DNA of 64,000 nt from a virus (Duplodnaviria; Caudoviricetes), in IMG/VR virus record IMGVR_UViG_3300031775_000001, positions 1 to 64,000 of that record; one strand, given 5' to 3'. A program made the translations under genes and the position numbers. Numbering within the stretch: the stretch's first letter is position 1; every line of letters begins with the position of its first letter. The notes beneath the pieces were generated by a model. The model made no database searches. It saw nothing but the letters and a program-made list of their open reading frames with translations, and was not told the origin of the DNA. Positions 4,396-47,214 of this stretch are shown piece after piece.

Positions 4396-5145
4396 ATTTT
4401 ATTTCAAAAAAGATTTACTCAACATGATTTCCCCTATGCTTTCTCTTTCTATCTAGAATCTTGTTTCGCCTTTTCATGGGGCGAGACTTAGTGAAAAGAA
4501 TTGGTTTCCTAATCTTTATTTTTCTTCCTTTTTTCATGCCACCGGTTCATTGCTTGTTCAACTGTTTTGAATTGACTTAATAATCGCTTGAACCCTTCCC
4601 ATGAAGGTTTCGGCTCATTAAGCTCTTTCCATGCTTTCATTCTCTCTTCTCCTGTAATCATGGTGCAATATACTCCGGCTTTACTAAAAAAGCAAATTAT
4701 TTATTCAACCTCTTTACTAAAGAAGTAGCTTCGTTTTCCGTAACCCAGCCATATATTTTAGCTCCCTGGATAATCTGATTGTATTTCCAGCCTCTCGTTT
4801 GGAGGATAACCGGAACATCGTTATTGGCTTTTACTTCTTTTGTTATTCTATTTAGTTTTTTAATATTCATATCTATTTATTATTTTCAGTTAATTGTTCT
4901 TTGATTGCTTCTATTTCTTCCTTGTTGCCACCTTCCATAGCGACAATCAGTGCATCTAATAATTTATCCGCTATTTCTTTTCTTGAGAGTCTCTCTTCCG
5001 GAGGAGCCGGATACACGTCTTCCTTCCCTCCCCAACCTTCAAAAGGATTATCCATTCTTAAATTCCTTTTCCAATTTCCATATTAAATAAAACATTACCA
5101 CCCATGTGGATAATAAACAAATTGCTTCTATTATTTCTGAATTCA

Positions 5146-7239: not shown

Positions 7240-7720
7240 CTAATCATAGAATGCTCGCGAACATAAGCGAACATAAGGAAAAAAATGTGTGGGGAGGGAC
7301 TACTGTATACCCTCGACTTTTCGGTGTGAACATCAGTTCAATGTTCCTACTTCGCACCACGAATAAGACTGGAAGTCTCTGGCTCATCCGATTGGACTCT
7401 ACCACCCCCACCACAGGGGAATCGTGTACCTTAGCCCGCTCACAACAGGCTTGCTCAGTCACCCACAGGAAGGATTATAAGCCCTTCCAAAGACTCTACA
7501 AATAAGGAATTCCATTAGAACTTCCACGAAATTTAAGGTTAAACCTTATTTGCAGATAAAATCGTTTGCGAGTGGGTTGACTAAGTTATGACCAGCTTCT
7601 TAACTCAACCACAATATATTTATTGTAATTATAATTAAAGTGTCTTACCACCCGCAAACTAAACTGTAAAAGATCAAAGCTCTATTTGTTTTATTTGAGT
7701 TAAGCCTTCTCAAGTTTGAA
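7240..7720 (-). ncRNA. putative ~500-nt structured non-coding RNA of unknown family
   Basis: Bounded by its own promoter and terminator. Multiple helices (7648-7659/7564-7575, 7544-7554/7497-7507, 7468-7488, 7433-7451). No credible ORF. Confidence 0.65.
7661..7676 (-). promoter_or_regulatory. boxA-like antitermination element
   Basis: TGATCTTTTACAGTTT; 15/16 identical to 40658-40673. Confidence 0.55.
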
Positions 7721-10229: not shown

Positions 10230-10412
10230 ATGAATAAAGAAAGAATTATAGATTATTTGACAATACAGATAATGAAAGATAAAAATTTCACAGGGAATCA
10301 TCATTGCCGAGTAAGAGTTGCATGGATACTAGCTAAGAAGCAATATGAATTAATGTCTCTACAAGAAAAAGAAAACCTACTTAGAAAAATTGGTACGGAA
10401 GGTGAGACTTGA
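10230..10412 (+). CDS. hypothetical protein (60 aa), rare plus-strand gene
   Basis: Fills an otherwise empty gap, has protein-like sequence and is preceded by the GTGTA motif. Confidence 0.5.
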   Translation: MNKERIIDYLTIQIMKDKNFTGNHHCRVRVAWILAKKQYELMSLQEKENLLRKIGTEGET

Positions 10413-10467
10413 ACTCACGACCCTCTGCTTAGAAGGCAGATGCTCTATCCGACTGAGCTACTTCCGC
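10391..10467 (-). tRNA. tRNA-Arg (anticodon TCT) with encoded CCA
   Basis: GCGGAAG TA GCTC..GAGC A TCTGC CTTCTAA GCAGA GGGTC GTGAG TTCAAGT CTCAC CTTCCGT ACCA gives a canonical cloverleaf. Confidence 0.97.
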
Positions 10468-30155: not shown

Positions 30156-30343
30156 CCTCTGCCTAATACTCTAGCTTTTTCGGATTCGGGTATAGTTCCA
30201 TCATGGACATATCCCGAAGCATCTTCGGCTTTCTTTAGCCCAAGAGGACGAACTATCCAATAAACAATTTCGCTCAAAGGATGAGCAACCATATTGTGAA
30301 TAAACCAATTTTTATATAACTTTTTCATGAAGTGATTGATATT

Positions 30344-39953: not shown

Positions 39954-40400
39954 TTTATTTCTTTTTCTTCAATTTCTCTTCTATAACTTCTATTAACTTT
40001 TCCATCTTCTTTTTAGGCAATCTTTTATACCCTAATAGGAAGTCAATTATTTTATCTACAGATTTTTCTCCAAAAACCAACTCATCATTAAACGCTTTTC
40101 CTTTTGACAATACCTCCCAGCAGTATCTAATCCTATCCCTCCAAGATAAAGGTCGATTAGAAAGCCCGGAACTCCAGTAGGAAAAATAATACAGGCGATC
40201 TTCTACATCATAATCAATGCCCATCCCTTCTCCTTGGCATTCGCATTTAATAAATATTGACCTGTCTTTATTTTCATTCATTATTTTTGCCTCCCATAAC
40301 TGTTCTTAGTACATTCATTATAAATAAATAAAAAACAAAGTCAAGATTAATCGACAAGGGTTGTCTCGTTATCCTCTATATTTTGGAAATTGATCAAGTA

Positions 40401-40569
40401 GTTTCGTTCTCCCTCCTTATTTGAAGGAGTGGAAACCCATTACTGGCAATGGATTGCCTCTCAATTAGTTTCGCTCCCCTTCGTATTTGAAGGAGTGGAA
40501 ACCAGAGGAGTACTGCATCAGCATTTCCTATGCGTTTCGCTCCCCTTCGTATTTGAAGGAGTGGAAACC
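40401..40569 (-). CRISPR. CRISPR mini-array: 3 repeats (36 nt; distal one degenerate, 37 nt) and 2 spacers of 30 nt
   Basis: Repeats at 40534-40569 and 40468-40503 are identical (minus: GGTTTCCACTCCTTCAAATACGAAGGGGAGCGAAAC); 40401-40437 is degenerate. The repeat is palindromic and ends in GAAAC. Confidence 0.9.
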
Positions 40570-40675
40570 CGAAGCTCCTAACCCCTTAATATGAAAGGAG
40601 ATGCCCCTCGATAAAATCTAAGGGCTTTTAGTTCCCCACCGAACATGGAAGAACATCAAACTGTAAAAGAACAAA
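40570..40675 (-). ncRNA. structured leader / tracr- or omegaRNA-like scaffold
   Basis: boxA-like start, two to three hairpins, and an anti-repeat-like AAGGGGT-TA-GGAG joined to repeat 1 by a cUUCGg loop. Confidence 0.65.
40658..40673 (-). promoter_or_regulatory. boxA-like antitermination element upstream of the array
   Basis: TGTTCTTTTACAGTTT begins 2-3 nt after the tnpB stop. Confidence 0.55.
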
Positions 40676-41887
40676 TTAGCCAAATGCCCTCTGGCGTACA
40701 ACCTCGGCGGCATTAGGGTCTCGAAAAAGATGAGTGCCACATTCCGGGCAATCCCATTCCCTTTCGTCTAGAGTGAGGTTTCTATTAATGAAACCACAAC
40801 AAGAACAAGTCATAGAGGTATATTTAGGATCAACCATCTTACAGGTTTTTCCCTCAAGCTCTGATTTATATTGAATTTGTGAAATAATTTCTGCCAGCCC
40901 ACCGCCGACAAGTTTTTTGTTTGTGGCTTTCTTCACTCGCCTTAATGTTTTCTTATCTTCCTCTGTCTTTTCTACTATTTTCTTAACTTCAAAATCTTCA
41001 ACGGCGATGCCATCATTTTCGGAAACTATCTGACGGCTAATGGCATGTCTTGCATGTTTTTTCTTATTTGCTTCATAATGTTTTAGCCTTGCAATCTTAG
41101 ACTTTATTTTTCTAAAATTCTTTGACCCCTTTTTGCAAAGAGCCAATTTCTGATTAAGTCTAGCCTGACGAGCTTCAACATCTTTATAGGTCGGAATATG
41201 GAACGTATTGCCCTTATTGTCCGTAACATGATCCTTAATTCCAAAATCTAAACCGATTGTTTTTTTAATTTTAACCTTCTTCTGTATGGTTTGGGATTCT
41301 CCAACTATACATACATACCATTTTCCGGCTTGATGTTTAATAGTTGCGATTTTGGGCTTTCTTCCATCAAGAGAACGATGCATAATAAGTTTGACCTTAT
41401 GAGGCTTCACTCTGTTTGCAGGGTTAGATAAGAAAATATGGCTTTTCTTCAACTTGTCTTCATTTATTTCTAATTTATATGAATCAGTTTGAAAACTATT
41501 TGCCAACCTCAAAGGTTTAGGTTTCAGTCGAGAACCACCACCCTTGGTAAAGAAATTACCTCTGAGTTGATTAGCAATATGATTTAGATCTCTTGAGGGG
41601 CATTTTCTTAAAAGCTCAATACCCCAATTGTTTCCTTCTTCATCCAAATACCTATCCTCAAATCCTTCACCATAAGTTCTCCATCTCGTTATATTCCTAT
41701 TATAAGCAGTAAAATTAGGCTTTTTTTCTTCCTCATTGTCCGCTTCAGCCAGAAAGATATACTCATTCTTAACTAATTGAGAAGCTCTGCAACAATCATA
41801 TAGATATTCTTCCTGCTCCTTGTTTGGCTTAATTGCGAACTTGAAGGTTTTCAAATTCTTATTGTTTTTCTCTTTGGATTTCATCAA
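40676..41887 (-). CDS. tnpB: TnpB/Cas12f-like RNA-guided RuvC nuclease (403 aa), CRISPR-associated
   Basis: N-terminal TFKFAIKPNKEQ (OrfB HTH), RuvC-I IGLDFG, RuvC-II IAVEDF, Zn finger TSMTCSCCG...WDCPECG, RuvC-III RDPNAA. Confidence 0.93.
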   Translation of the reverse strand: MMKSKEKNNKNLKTFKFAIKPNKEQEEYLYDCCRASQLVKNEYIFLAEADNEEEKKPNFTAYNRNITRWRTYGEGFEDRYLDEEGNNWGIELLRKCPSRDLNHIANQLRGNFFTKGGGSRLKPKPLRLANSFQTDSYKLEINEDKLKKSHIFLSNPANRVKPHKVKLIMHRSLDGRKPKIATIKHQAGKWYVCIVGESQTIQKKVKIKKTIGLDFGIKDHVTDNKGNTFHIPTYKDVEARQARLNQKLALCKKGSKNFRKIKSKIARLKHYEANKKKHARHAISRQIVSENDGIAVEDFEVKKIVEKTEEDKKTLRRVKKATNKKLVGGGLAEIISQIQYKSELEGKTCKMVDPKYTSMTCSCCGFINRNLTLDEREWDCPECGTHLFRDPNAAEVVRQRAFG

Positions 41888-41894
41888 AGAACTC

Positions 41895-41992
41895 TAGTTT
41901 CGTTCTTAAGACCACATGTCGTTGTTTCGTTCATTTGGTATAGATGCCTATTTGAATTAAGCTTTGACTTCCCCTCCGAACAAGGAAGAAGC
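41895..41992 (-). repeat. second copy of the CRISPR leader scaffold upstream of tnpB
   Basis: 41961-41990 vs 40624-40653 is 26/30 identical; shared GGCATCT; two GAACGAAAC repeat-end motifs at 41897-41905 and 41924-41932. Confidence 0.7.
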
Positions 41993-42554
41993 AAGGGTAA
42001 ACCTTGATTTTGAAAAAAAATCATTCTTGAGGACTCCAATAAATCCCCTTAAATAAAACCAATTTAACATTGTCGCCATCGTCCACATCAATCCCTATAA
42101 GCTCACCCTCTGGAACGACAGATTTTGTGCTTTCATAAAAGAACTCCTTGGATTCAGAAGCATAGACTACTTGATCTGAGTGATATGGTAGCTTATCGAA
42201 GAAATCCGGATTATCCTTTTCCCATTTCTTAAAGTTTTCATATTGACTCGCTTTAGAAGGAAAATAACTACCGGACTCTAATTTGCCCACAGTCTTTTTT
42301 TGTTGTTTGCTCATTTTATTTAAAAATCTATGGATTCGGAAAAAGAAGTTCTAATGTCATTCACTAATTGAGACCGAGAATCACCCAAGGAACATTCGTC
42401 CCCTTCAATATAAAAAGAACTACATATATCGCTTATAGGGTCACCCCTAGATTCCCACCAATCCGGATTTTCTTCCATTGTTGAGAGCAAGACTTCTTCT
42501 ATAAAACTTGATATTTCTTCTATCCTGCTAAAATTGATTTCTTTATTTGTATCA

Positions 42555-44046: not shown

Positions 44047-44781
44047 TCATTCCGGAACGTAATGGTTTTTATTTAAATTTATTTCTTTCGGAAGTCGGGA
44101 AGTTTTTTTTATTTGTTTTATTCTGCATTTGTCTGCCTTATTGAAAATCCCGGCCAAATATTTAGCCGACTCATTTGCTTCTGAAATATCATTTTTATTC
44201 TCATCCTCAACTGTCATGCCTTTATAATGATGTCTTAATTTTTCAAAAATTCTAATTTTGCAGATATTAACTGCTTGTCTAGTTATTGAATGTTTGGTTG
44301 CTATTTCTTTTTCGCTCTTACCTTTTAACATCATTCCAAAGGTATCCTTTTCAATTTCCGTCAATATATGAGAATATTTTTTAATAATATCAACAATAAC
44401 CTTCAGTTTTGCACCTTCATCAAAGAATGCAACATCTTCCTCTACTCCTATTTGATCGCATATCCAATCAAACAAAGAAACTTGCCCATCATCAGTTTCA
44501 TATGTCCCGTCAGCAAGATTTTTAGAATAATGAAATTCTTTTATGCCCTGCCAGTTCGTTACATTCCTTGCATACGCATATGCCCATTTAGTGAAGTCTG
44601 CCTTAGAGAAATCATAGCCTAATTTATCAAAAAACTTTTGTTTCGTTTTTATTAAATTAAAATTAACTTGACCTACCATATCATCAACGGTAGAACTCGC
44701 ATTTTGGGAAATATGCTTTCCTACTATTTTCCTAAGGTCTTCCTGATACTCTACTAAAAAATCATCAAATCTAGATTTCAT
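44047..44781 (-). CDS. ECF-like RNA polymerase sigma factor (sigma2 + sigma4)
   Basis: VDDMVGQVNFNL...FTKWAYAYARN (region 2); LTEIEKDTFGMMLKGKSEKEIATKHSITRQAVNICKIRIFEKLR (region 4). Confidence 0.8.
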   Translation of the reverse strand: MKSRFDDFLVEYQEDLRKIVGKHISQNASSTVDDMVGQVNFNLIKTKQKFFDKLGYDFSKADFTKWAYAYARNVTNWQGIKEFHYSKNLADGTYETDDGQVSLFDWICDQIGVEEDVAFFDEGAKLKVIVDIIKKYSHILTEIEKDTFGMMLKGKSEKEIATKHSITRQAVNICKIRIFEKLRHHYKGMTVEDENKNDISEANESAKYLAGIFNKADKCRIKQIKKTSRLPKEINLNKNHYVPE

Positions 44782-46000
44782 TTTCTTTTATAAATTTAAA
44801 TAACCTAACGTAATTGGAAATTGGCATATTAAGATACTTCGCCGCCTGTAGGGCGACTTTATTATTTTGATGATAGGCTTCCAATATTGAGCTTTTCATC
44901 TCTTTTGCATATTTAATTCTATTTCTTTTCCTCGCAGACAACCTATTGGCGAGCCTAATCTCATCAACACTATCCAAAAAATCTCTTTTAAAATCAGGAT
45001 AAGCCCTACCCATTTGATTCATTGTTCTTCTTAGGGTGTTTACCGCCAATCCGAATTCTTTTGCAACAGATTTTAATAAGTGATTATTCCTTTTTAAGCT
45101 TTCCTCTAATTTAGGTTTTAGCTTCTCCAGCCTTAAAGAAAGCCTTATTTTGTTATTCTTTTTTCGAGTTTCTAGCATCTTCTTTCTAACTTCGGGGTCT
45201 TTTAGGTTGGACGGAATTAAGTTCCCATTCTTTTTCCTTGTCTCCAAGGCTTTAATCTTCCCCATCTCTAATTTCTCCGGATCATAAACAGGGTCTCTAG
45301 CGGGAGGATTTGGGTATCTTTTTTTCCAATTAATTCCTTCAAAAAAAATCATCCTGTTCATCAAGGATCTATGACTAATGCGAAGTATATCTTTCGCGTG
45401 ATTAACATTTCCTTTGGTTCCATCCATTACAAAGAGTATTGATTCTAATTCTTTTTCTGCGACCTCAGAATCATTATAGTTCGTCCTCCCTCTCTTGTCC
45501 GAATGGGATTTCCCGTATTTGCTTAAAGCGGAAAACCAATTTTTTGTTTTATTTTTGTTGTGTTCTCTTCCGGCTTCTATGAAAATCCTTATCTCTTCAT
45601 CGCTTTTTTTATAATTTTTGGGGGGAGACCAATTTCTTCGACCTACCTGACCTTCAAACCTCTTTTTTTCGATTTTAAAGAGCTTATCAAATTCATTGGG
45701 GAACGCCGTACTTCTTACCGCATCCCAGAACGCAATTCTACTTGAGCCTACAGAATTTTTTCCATATTCTTTATGTAGGATGTATATATGAGACGCTTTC
45801 CTTTTTGAGAAATTTTTATTTTCTGAAAGTTTTAAATCTAATATATTAAGAGCTAATTTAGCTGATTTAGCCTTAAGAAAAACTTTAAAATCTCTTTCGC
45901 TTTTATCTTTATAACATTCAGTATAATGAAGCACCCAATATTGATTATGAGCAAATTTCTTCCTAAACGATCTAAACTGAATATTTTTTCCTTTTCTCAT
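44771..46000 (-). CDS. basic protein with three Fis-type HTH motifs (409 aa), paralog of 45997..47214
   Basis: GNVNHAKDILRISHRSL, LKSVAKEFGLAVNTLRR and ALQAAKYLNMPISNY helices. Confidence 0.7.
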   Translation of the reverse strand: MRKGKNIQFRSFRKKFAHNQYWVLHYTECYKDKSERDFKVFLKAKSAKLALNILDLKLSENKNFSKRKASHIYILHKEYGKNSVGSSRIAFWDAVRSTAFPNEFDKLFKIEKKRFEGQVGRRNWSPPKNYKKSDEEIRIFIEAGREHNKNKTKNWFSALSKYGKSHSDKRGRTNYNDSEVAEKELESILFVMDGTKGNVNHAKDILRISHRSLMNRMIFFEGINWKKRYPNPPARDPVYDPEKLEMGKIKALETRKKNGNLIPSNLKDPEVRKKMLETRKKNNKIRLSLRLEKLKPKLEESLKRNNHLLKSVAKEFGLAVNTLRRTMNQMGRAYPDFKRDFLDSVDEIRLANRLSARKRNRIKYAKEMKSSILEAYHQNNKVALQAAKYLNMPISNYVRLFKFIKENEI

Positions 46001-47214
46001 TGAAGCCCCTCCCTAATGTCTTTAACGAAATTGCGAAAAGTACCTGGGCTCATGCCTAAATACTTAGAAGCTTGGCGAGAATTTCCGTCAAATTGATGAT
46101 AAGCCTCAAGGATATTATGCTTGCAGGAATTCAATTGATGCTCCCTCCTCTTTTTTTTGGCAAAAGAATGATTTTCATTTCTTTTTTTATCCTTCACTTC
46201 GTCAAATTCTTTTTTAAAATTGGGGTAGAAAATCTTTAAGTCTCTGATTACATTAGAAACCCATGCGACACTCATGCCCAACTCCTCGCTTGTCCTGATT
46301 TGATGAAAATTATTTTTTCTTAGAGCATCCAAAAAAGGAGTTTTTATCTTTTTTAAATTTTCCTCTTTCTTTTTTCTCCATGTCTTTGCTCTTGTTTTTT
46401 TAGCTTTATTCAATACCTCTTCTTTGTTCTTGAAATTAAAAAACTTATGCCCACGAGACTTAAGTGTTTTGACCGCCTCTATATGACCGATCCTTTGGGC
46501 TTCAGTATTCTTTTTTCTCTCTCTGGTTCCGGTTAAAGGATATTCTTTATTCCAATCAACTCCGTCAAACTTTTGCAAATAACGCCTGAAGGCAGATGAA
46601 CCAATGCCTAACTCGTCACCGCAAGCACTTTTATTCCCCTTGTTTTTTTTCATTAACCCTTTAAGGAATTTAGTTTCCATTCCTTTGAAGGTAAGATCCT
46701 TTAAAGAAACATAAGAATTTTCTCCAAATCGTTTTTTTGCTTCTGGGCTTTTGGGCAAAACACAACCTCTCTTTTTGTCAGAAAACTTTTTTAATCTGGC
46801 AATTCTCTCATTATTTAATTCTTTGGAAGGGCGCTGTTCCCCCCTTCCCATTGGATGCAAATAACTATATTTCTTATCTTTTTTAAGTTTGAATATTTTA
46901 TTAAATTCATTTGGGAAGCTTATCTTCCTTATGTGATCCCAAGTCGAAATAGAGGAACTTAATTTAACCCCGGAAAATCGACTAAATCCCTTATGAAAAA
47001 AATAAAATAATATTGAGATTAACTTGATATTCTCATTCTCTTCTGAGATTCTTTTTAGCAGAATTTCTTTAGCCATCTCCCCGGACCTAGCCTTAATGAC
47101 AGTTCGGTAATTCCCTAATAATTTCCCACCGAGCATTTCCGAAAAATGCACAACCCAATATTGGTTGCTAGAAAATTTCTTAAATCTATATTTGTTTTGA
47201 ATGTTGGATTTCAT
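45997..47214 (-). CDS. basic protein with three Fis-type HTH motifs (405 aa)
   Basis: KNKGNKSACGDELGIGSSAFRRYL, HQIRTSEELGMSVAWV and DGNSRQASKYLGMSPGTF. Confidence 0.7.
   Translation of the reverse strand: MKSNIQNKYRFKKFSSNQYWVVHFSEMLGGKLLGNYRTVIKARSGEMAKEILLKRISEENENIKLISILFYFFHKGFSRFSGVKLSSSISTWDHIRKISFPNEFNKIFKLKKDKKYSYLHPMGRGEQRPSKELNNERIARLKKFSDKKRGCVLPKSPEAKKRFGENSYVSLKDLTFKGMETKFLKGLMKKNKGNKSACGDELGIGSSAFRRYLQKFDGVDWNKEYPLTGTRERKKNTEAQRIGHIEAVKTLKSRGHKFFNFKNKEEVLNKAKKTRAKTWRKKKEENLKKIKTPFLDALRKNNFHQIRTSEELGMSVAWVSNVIRDLKIFYPNFKKEFDEVKDKKRNENHSFAKKKRREHQLNSCKHNILEAYHQFDGNSRQASKYLGMSPGTFRNFVKDIREGLQ

Follow-up and report, generated by a model that had tools for sequence, protein, structure and literature searches.

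The locus described here lies within a 64-kb stretch of phage DNA, referred to throughout as the window. It consists of a tnpB-family nuclease gene, a scaffold RNA sequence that begins just past the stop codon, a short array of repeats and spacers, and a second, eroded copy of the scaffold upstream of the gene (Table 1). All sizeable open reading frames (ORFs) in the window are on the minus strand. Given that the window encodes rIIA, rIIB, a DnaE-type polymerase, a clamp loader and a ClpB-like ATPase, we consider the genome to be that of a large phage, and these phage genes agree with the setting proposed in an earlier note on the same DNA.

Table 1. Features of the tnpB locus in the window, in the direction of the gene, and tRNA-like guide regions in related loci (L numbers).
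Feature	Position	Strand	Basis or remark
Second, eroded scaffold copy upstream of tnpB	41889..42015	-	Covariance model match 41914-42015
Upstream copy, hairpin 1'	41968-41991	-	
Upstream copy, hairpin 2'	41946-41962	-	
Upstream copy, nine-base repeat tails	41924-41932 and 41897-41905	-	
Upstream copy, 18-nt guide-like stretch	41906-41923	-	Between both tails
tnpB-family nuclease gene	40676..41884	-	402 aa from ATG; TTG one codon upstream (41887) gives 403 aa
Scaffold, conserved 5' box	40655..40674	-	Starts two bases past stop codon; aligned in relatives' modules
Scaffold, hairpin 1	40631..40654	-	G+C-rich stem, five-base loop; RNAalifold, compensatory pairs
Scaffold, hairpin 2	40603..40625	-	RNAalifold with compensatory pairs; also in single-sequence fold
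Scaffold, hairpin 3 (40582-40600) and tail (40570-40581)	40570..40600	-	Repeat-like proto-repeat; abuts repeat 1
Repeat 1 (R1), 36 nt	40534..40569	-	Sequence, exact-repeat search, hairpin fold
Spacer 1, 30 nt	40504..40533	-	Sequence
Repeat 2 (R2), 36 nt	40468..40503	-	Sequence; identical to repeat 1
Spacer 2, 30 nt	40438..40467	-	Sequence
Repeat 3 (R3), 37 nt, degenerate	40401..40437	-	Sequence; last in array, farthest from gene
Strong sigma-70-like promoter of next gene	40317..40344	-	11/12 consensus positions; downstream limit of locus
tRNA-like guide regions in relatives	L004:3233-3602; L005:2569-2948; L013:2764-2931 and 5066-5100; L101:1760-1830		

The nuclease gene is intact and its product is TnpB-shaped. 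The protein matches the Pfam families OrfB_IS605 (PF01385) and Cas12f1-like_TNB (PF07282) and scores 182.6 bits against the NCBIfam model guided_TnpB (NF040570, cut-off 100). An alignment of 12 members, the window TnpB and eleven relatives, shows no variation at the RuvC residues D214, E297 and D390 or at the zinc-finger cysteines C361, C364, C380 and C383. Together with the domain matches, these residues bear out the previous description of a TnpB-sized RuvC protein with three catalytic acids and a zinc finger. The 403-residue length given there is true of the TTG start, while the ATG start yields the 402 residues that are also the length in the closest relatives. An AlphaFold model of the protein (mean pLDDT of 79.6) was searched with Foldseek, and the best match was ISDra2 TnpB (8h1j, E 3e-19, TM 0.61/0.67), followed by IS607 TnpB, with Cas12f ranking after both. 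The NCBIfam Cas12f2 model scored 52 bits on the window TnpB, below its cut-off of 450, and the TM of the modelled structure was about 0.49 to Cas12f and 0.51 to Cas12p. With a model score under the cut-off and a TM below that of the TnpB match, the nuclease is predicted not to be a Cas12f.

We found two exact copies of the repeat in the window, compared with none in 100 shuffles, and the repeat is predicted to fold into a hairpin (z = -3.6). The coordinates confirm three repeats of 36-37 nt with 30-nt spacers and a distal degenerate copy, all as first reported, and the gap of about 106 nt between gene and array measures exactly 106 nt from the stop codon to R1 (40570-40675). The array had also been read in the same direction as the gene, which holds up given that the eroded repeats of relatives conserve their 3' ends only. 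Since these eroded repeats retain just their last seven to nine bases, the guide would lie 3' of the repeat and transcription would run in the direction of the gene.

The structure of the scaffold was predicted with RNAalifold from 16 scaffolds on different contigs, and compensatory changes were found in 5 of the 16 predicted pairs of hairpins 1 and 2. Across the 64 kb of the window, a covariance model made from the same alignment matches two copies and no others, the downstream one at 40571-40674 (97 bits) and the upstream one with 26 bits (E 0.002); likewise, the hairpin-1 motif occurs only twice in the window. The model also finds copies in all loci of the clade described below and no scaffold in loci of ordinary phage and bacterial TnpBs, and no known RNA family in Rfam matches the scaffold. 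The upstream copy is conserved in L001, L002 and L088, and its final unit runs into the start of tnpB. In L013 and L103 the equivalent of hairpin 3 still ends in the 3' tail of the repeat itself. Since the last scaffold hairpin keeps the repeat's 3' tail in several relatives, the repeat looks like a guide-adjacent omega-RNA end that was duplicated, and by sequence the array repeat looks copied from the final hairpin of the scaffold. A further stem, closing the 5' box onto the scaffold tail, is present in the fold of the window sequence but was rejected, as the relatives give it no support by eye.

We searched the genomic context for adaptation and mobility genes. Among the matches listed for the 98 window ORFs (best 25 families per scan), none was to Cas1, Cas2, Cas4, Cas6, a Y1 transposase or a recombinase, and the sole cas-type match was TnpB itself. 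Within the same matches, the reported absence of tnpA, recombinase, cas1, cas2 and cas4 therefore stands. In a 96.7-kb relative we found a single TnpB and neither Cas1 nor a Y1 transposase. The tnpB gene is syntenic in related phages and present as a single copy, and judged by sequence the TnpB locus would not be classed as a mobile IS. The window stretch was found in marine metagenomes from at least 15 studies. Several marine studies include RNA libraries with contigs that overlap parts of tnpB, and in two runs the coverage takes in the tnpB 3' end and the scaffold along with the first repeat-spacer unit of an array of the L088 type. These contigs are a weak hint that the locus is expressed, and only that since DNA carry-over is possible.

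A protein search recovered a tight group of relatives with 35-97% identity, all from metagenomes and on marine phage-like contigs, which is separated by a large score gap from ordinary IS605 TnpBs. The relatives form one monophyletic branch (SH-aLRT 100) in a tree obtained by a quick search with a midpoint root. Scaffold and arrays are present in almost every relative with enough flanking DNA, the exception being a variant represented by L002 and L003, while the nearest outgroup TnpBs contain no arrays. The arrangement of the modules, each a scaffold with its array, is diverse across the group. L004 and L005 (48-51% identity) contain two or three modules downstream of the gene, L007-L011 (35%) contain modules of two types on both sides of tnpB, L012 (35%) contains one module per side, and L013 contains one upstream and three downstream. 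A scaffold and array also lie beside the gene in L085, L088, L091, L095, L096, L098, L100, L101, L103 and L104. The two scaffold types are homologous, since the covariance model made from one type finds the other. A blind scan of metagenomes with the hairpin-1 motif returned 27 places, 17 of which are true modules; 11 of these 17 lie beside a clade TnpB and the others are on short or cut contigs. Since the same scaffold and arrays recur in the relatives with flanking DNA, we do not regard the association of nuclease and array as a chance one.

These data support the pairing of nuclease and array made in the earlier note, as scaffold and array accompany clade members down to 35% identity. That note had named repeats unrelated to the gene in relatives as grounds for giving up the pairing; we looked at this and found that the relatives keep scaffold and arrays, L002 and L003 excepted. 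Its view of a recent, independent transition from TnpB to Cas12 is not supported, since the association is common to a deep monophyletic clade. We also observed that in L007 (5200-8130), L008 (2700-5820) and L012 (1-2140) the protein is longer (448-468 aa) and two scaffold and repeat types lie beside a single tnpB. One repeat-spacer unit is exactly duplicated in L008.

The L002 and L003 genes, which are 97% identical and come from two samples, lack the downstream module and retain the upstream scaffold. Their homology to the window ends at 40666, 10 nt past the stop codon and within the 5' box. At this break (region L002:2102-2266, and likewise in L003), what follows is the N-terminal part of a glutamine-synthetase-like protein, encoded on the other strand. 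L002 and L003 may represent a rearrangement in a phage variant or a chimeric assembly, and we count their missing module against the main reading given below.

Arrays of closely related phages differ in their spacers. L088 belongs to the same phage lineage as the window, with a TnpB that is 96% identical and with a scaffold and both flanks identical to those of the window. Its array contains six repeats and five spacers, none of which is shared with the window, and its repeats differ among themselves by stem-preserving changes. L085, L089, L096 and L098 similarly have scaffolds and flanks in common and different spacers. Since near-identical phages contain the same scaffold with different spacers, our data suggest that the guides turn over fast.

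We asked whether the spacers match any available sequence. Fifty spacers were compared by blastn-short with the window and approximately 130 fetched loci, which returned only chance matches of 14-15 nt or the arrays themselves. The array regions of the window, L008, L013, L088, L095 and L096 gave no protospacer among 50,697 phage records, nor did exact 22-mers from four spacers in IMG/VR, and the window spacers have no match elsewhere in the 64-kb window. With no protospacer in the collections searched, guide function is proposed from the anatomy of the locus alone.

Our data suggest that the locus encodes a domesticated, phage-carried TnpB that acts as an RNA-guided DNA endonuclease, and that its guide-RNA region is of a TranC-like or type V-U-like kind, intermediate between transposon and CRISPR. 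We give this reading a probability of roughly 70%, with the cutting role being predicted. Transcription from the tnpB side would yield the scaffold and the repeat-guide units, and TnpB would bind a repeat-guide unit along with the scaffold, which would act as a tracr-like RNA or be joined to the first repeat; the guide of the unit would be positioned 3' of its repeat. The complex would then cut guide-matching DNA beside a short adjacent motif, most likely in rival phages, other mobile elements or host DNA. New guides might arise by recombination or duplication, or through adaptation proteins borrowed in trans. Besides the missing module of L002 and L003, the lack of protospacers in the collections searched and the possible DNA origin of the RNA-library contigs, two observations count against this reading. 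Pairing between scaffold and repeat is possible, yet it is absent from the minimum-energy fold. A strict repeat-spacer period is typical of Cas1-Cas2 integration, and many of the arrays keep a strict period of 36 + 30 nt though no adaptation genes were found in the phage.

The regular geometry of the window array (36-nt repeats, 30-nt spacers), its palindromic hairpin repeat, of a kind common in class 1 systems, and the lack of adaptation genes in the phage would also be expected if the phage had built the array from CRISPR repeats of an unsampled host, as a separate mini-array or RNA decoy that works with or against host Cas proteins, with TnpB as a mere neighbour using a single ordinary omega-RNA guide. 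We consider this unlikely, since the repeat copies the terminal hairpin of the scaffold, scaffold and array occur together in relatives (bar L002 and L003) with scaffolds restricted to this TnpB clade, and eroded repeats retain nothing but the 3' end next to the guide, as a handle of the type V or omega-RNA kind would. Furthermore, two degenerate patterns of the repeat array gave chance matches only in 185,579 cellular species genomes (one genome per species), which makes a borrowed host repeat improbable, with an unsampled host as a possible source. The degenerate pattern also returned an unrelated 36-nt palindromic repeat with similar ends on two contigs of a rumen Bacteroidales MAG (L109:5900-6010 and L123:4900-5020). 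It is very unlikely that the locus is instead an ordinary mobile tnpB-only element of the IS200/IS605 type, whose left and right ends are the hairpin copies and which landed beside the repeats by chance. Similar hairpins do flank the gene in the window, TnpB is typical by sequence and fold, and the homology of L002 and L003 breaks a few bases past the stop codon; against this, the hairpin modules of relatives are in tandem downstream or one-sided, each with its own array, the hairpins covary as RNA along with two further hairpins, and the gene is a single copy at a syntenic position in related phages, with no transposase among the matches listed.

We also considered whether the repeats lack any guide function, being copies of the omega-RNA end that are decaying or structural, or else hairpins for termination or processing, so that the first unit or none is used. 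The many eroded units of relatives with their irregular spacing of 9-37 nt, the short 'guides' that are in some cases small hairpins followed by T runs, and the lack of targets among the collections searched are all consistent with decay. Full-length repeats are retained, however, with compensatory changes in their stems, and near-identical phages swap all spacers yet keep repeats, scaffold and flanks. Such a pattern fits selection on guides and not decay, and we therefore hold this explanation to be improbable as well.

The eroded arrays of relatives contain short guides of 15-20 nt behind conserved repeat tails that resemble the T-arm or D-arm of tRNAs, in both orientations. One T-arm-like guide occupies the same module position in L004, L005/L083 and L013, which represent both subclades, and another, D-arm-like one is similar to the D-arm of the tRNA encoded in the window itself. 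Rfam returned no significant tRNA match for these guides. It is conceivable, and in our estimate rather unlikely, that guides are renewed without Cas1-Cas2 while tRNA-like guides are fixed clade-wide, such that TnpB would be aimed at rivals and also at host or competitor tRNA genes.

Systems of this general kind are known, and the proposal that the locus is undescribed is not sustained, since TranC clades, type V-U branches and the phage-borne, 414-aa CauTranC9 have already been described. Altae-Tran et al. (PNAS 2023, PMC10691335) reported 40 TnpB branches (V-U6 to V-U45) that are linked to arrays without adaptation genes, and proposed that arrays are born by serial duplication of omega-RNA segments. 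According to the account in PMC13565253, the name TranC for such systems goes back to Jin et al. (Cell 2025), who found the omega-RNA split into tracrRNA and crRNA. CauTranC9, of TranC clade 9 (clade average 414 aa), comes from a Caudoviricetes genome and has 38-bp repeats, a measured PAM and phage-matching spacers (bioRxiv 10.64898/2026.03.27.714800).

The association of a TnpB-derived effector with an array is conserved among the relatives, L002 and L003 excepted, as in type V and TranC-like intermediates. The window system resembles the V-U branches in the consistent link of a TnpB clade to a downstream array without adaptation genes, and its anatomy is that foreseen in the serial-duplication proposal, the branches being compared by description. 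It resembles TranC in that the effector is TnpB-derived and TnpB-sized without expanded REC or WED domains, with the omega-RNA apparently divided into a scaffold and a short CRISPR array and with no cas1, cas2 or cas4 among the matches listed; like CauTranC9, it is phage-borne. It differs from TranC clade 9 in its repeats (36 nt here and 38 bp there, by description only), and LaTranC (9jfo/9jfq) is a weak match to the window TnpB (E 7e-9 by sequence, TM about 0.5). Unlike in TranC, the loci of this group carry copies of whole scaffold-array modules upstream as well as downstream of the gene, and some relatives have two scaffold and repeat types serving one gene. ISDra2 TnpB (8h1j, 8exa) is the best structural and a close sequence match, with the same size, RuvC triad and zinc finger and with its guide RNA likewise encoded directly downstream of the gene; in contrast to ISDra2 TnpB, for which the insertion site sets a single guide, the window locus carries several guides in arrays, is a single copy and has neither transposon ends nor, among the matches listed, a transposase. 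Cas12f and phage type V effectors (the Cas12p 'hacker', Cas12r, Cas-lambda and Cas-phi) are also miniature RuvC effectors with an array; unlike the window TnpB, they are larger (about 420-800 aa) and have added domains. Some phage-encoded type V effectors are thought to target rivals.

Few intermediates between transposons and CRISPR systems are known, and the locus contributes a natural lineage that is well sampled. Its effector is no larger than TnpB, and the relatives display every stage of array growth and erosion, including full 36-nt repeats, nine-base handles and duplicated scaffolds. Its most interesting aspects are the conserved short guides that resemble tRNA and the way in which guides would be renewed in the absence of adaptation genes. 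The nuclease would be of interest as an editing tool only if activity and a short adjacent motif were demonstrated.

A sigma-factor-like gene (GerE / sigma-70 region 4) and two paralogs of approximately 405 aa with HTH_8 domains lie a few genes upstream of the locus (window 44047-47214), and sigma-like genes lie just upstream of the locus in distant relatives (L007:3635-5106 and L013:1800-2480). These neighbours prompted us to consider a sigma-coupled, RNA-guided role in transcription, which we did not adopt as the main reading, since all three catalytic residues are in place and the 64-kb window contains no match to a guide. Elsewhere in the window, a stretch of approximately 75 nt (30257-30333) is 80% identical to L005:87-161 and L013:2464-2539, where it directly adjoins the tnpB locus; the L013 copy is seemingly part of a small ORF. 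The window also contains, on the minus strand, a manA RNA motif (7284-7488, 76 bits) and a tRNA-Arg(TCT) gene (10391-10467), and a mannose-6-phosphate isomerase domain is encoded in it as well.
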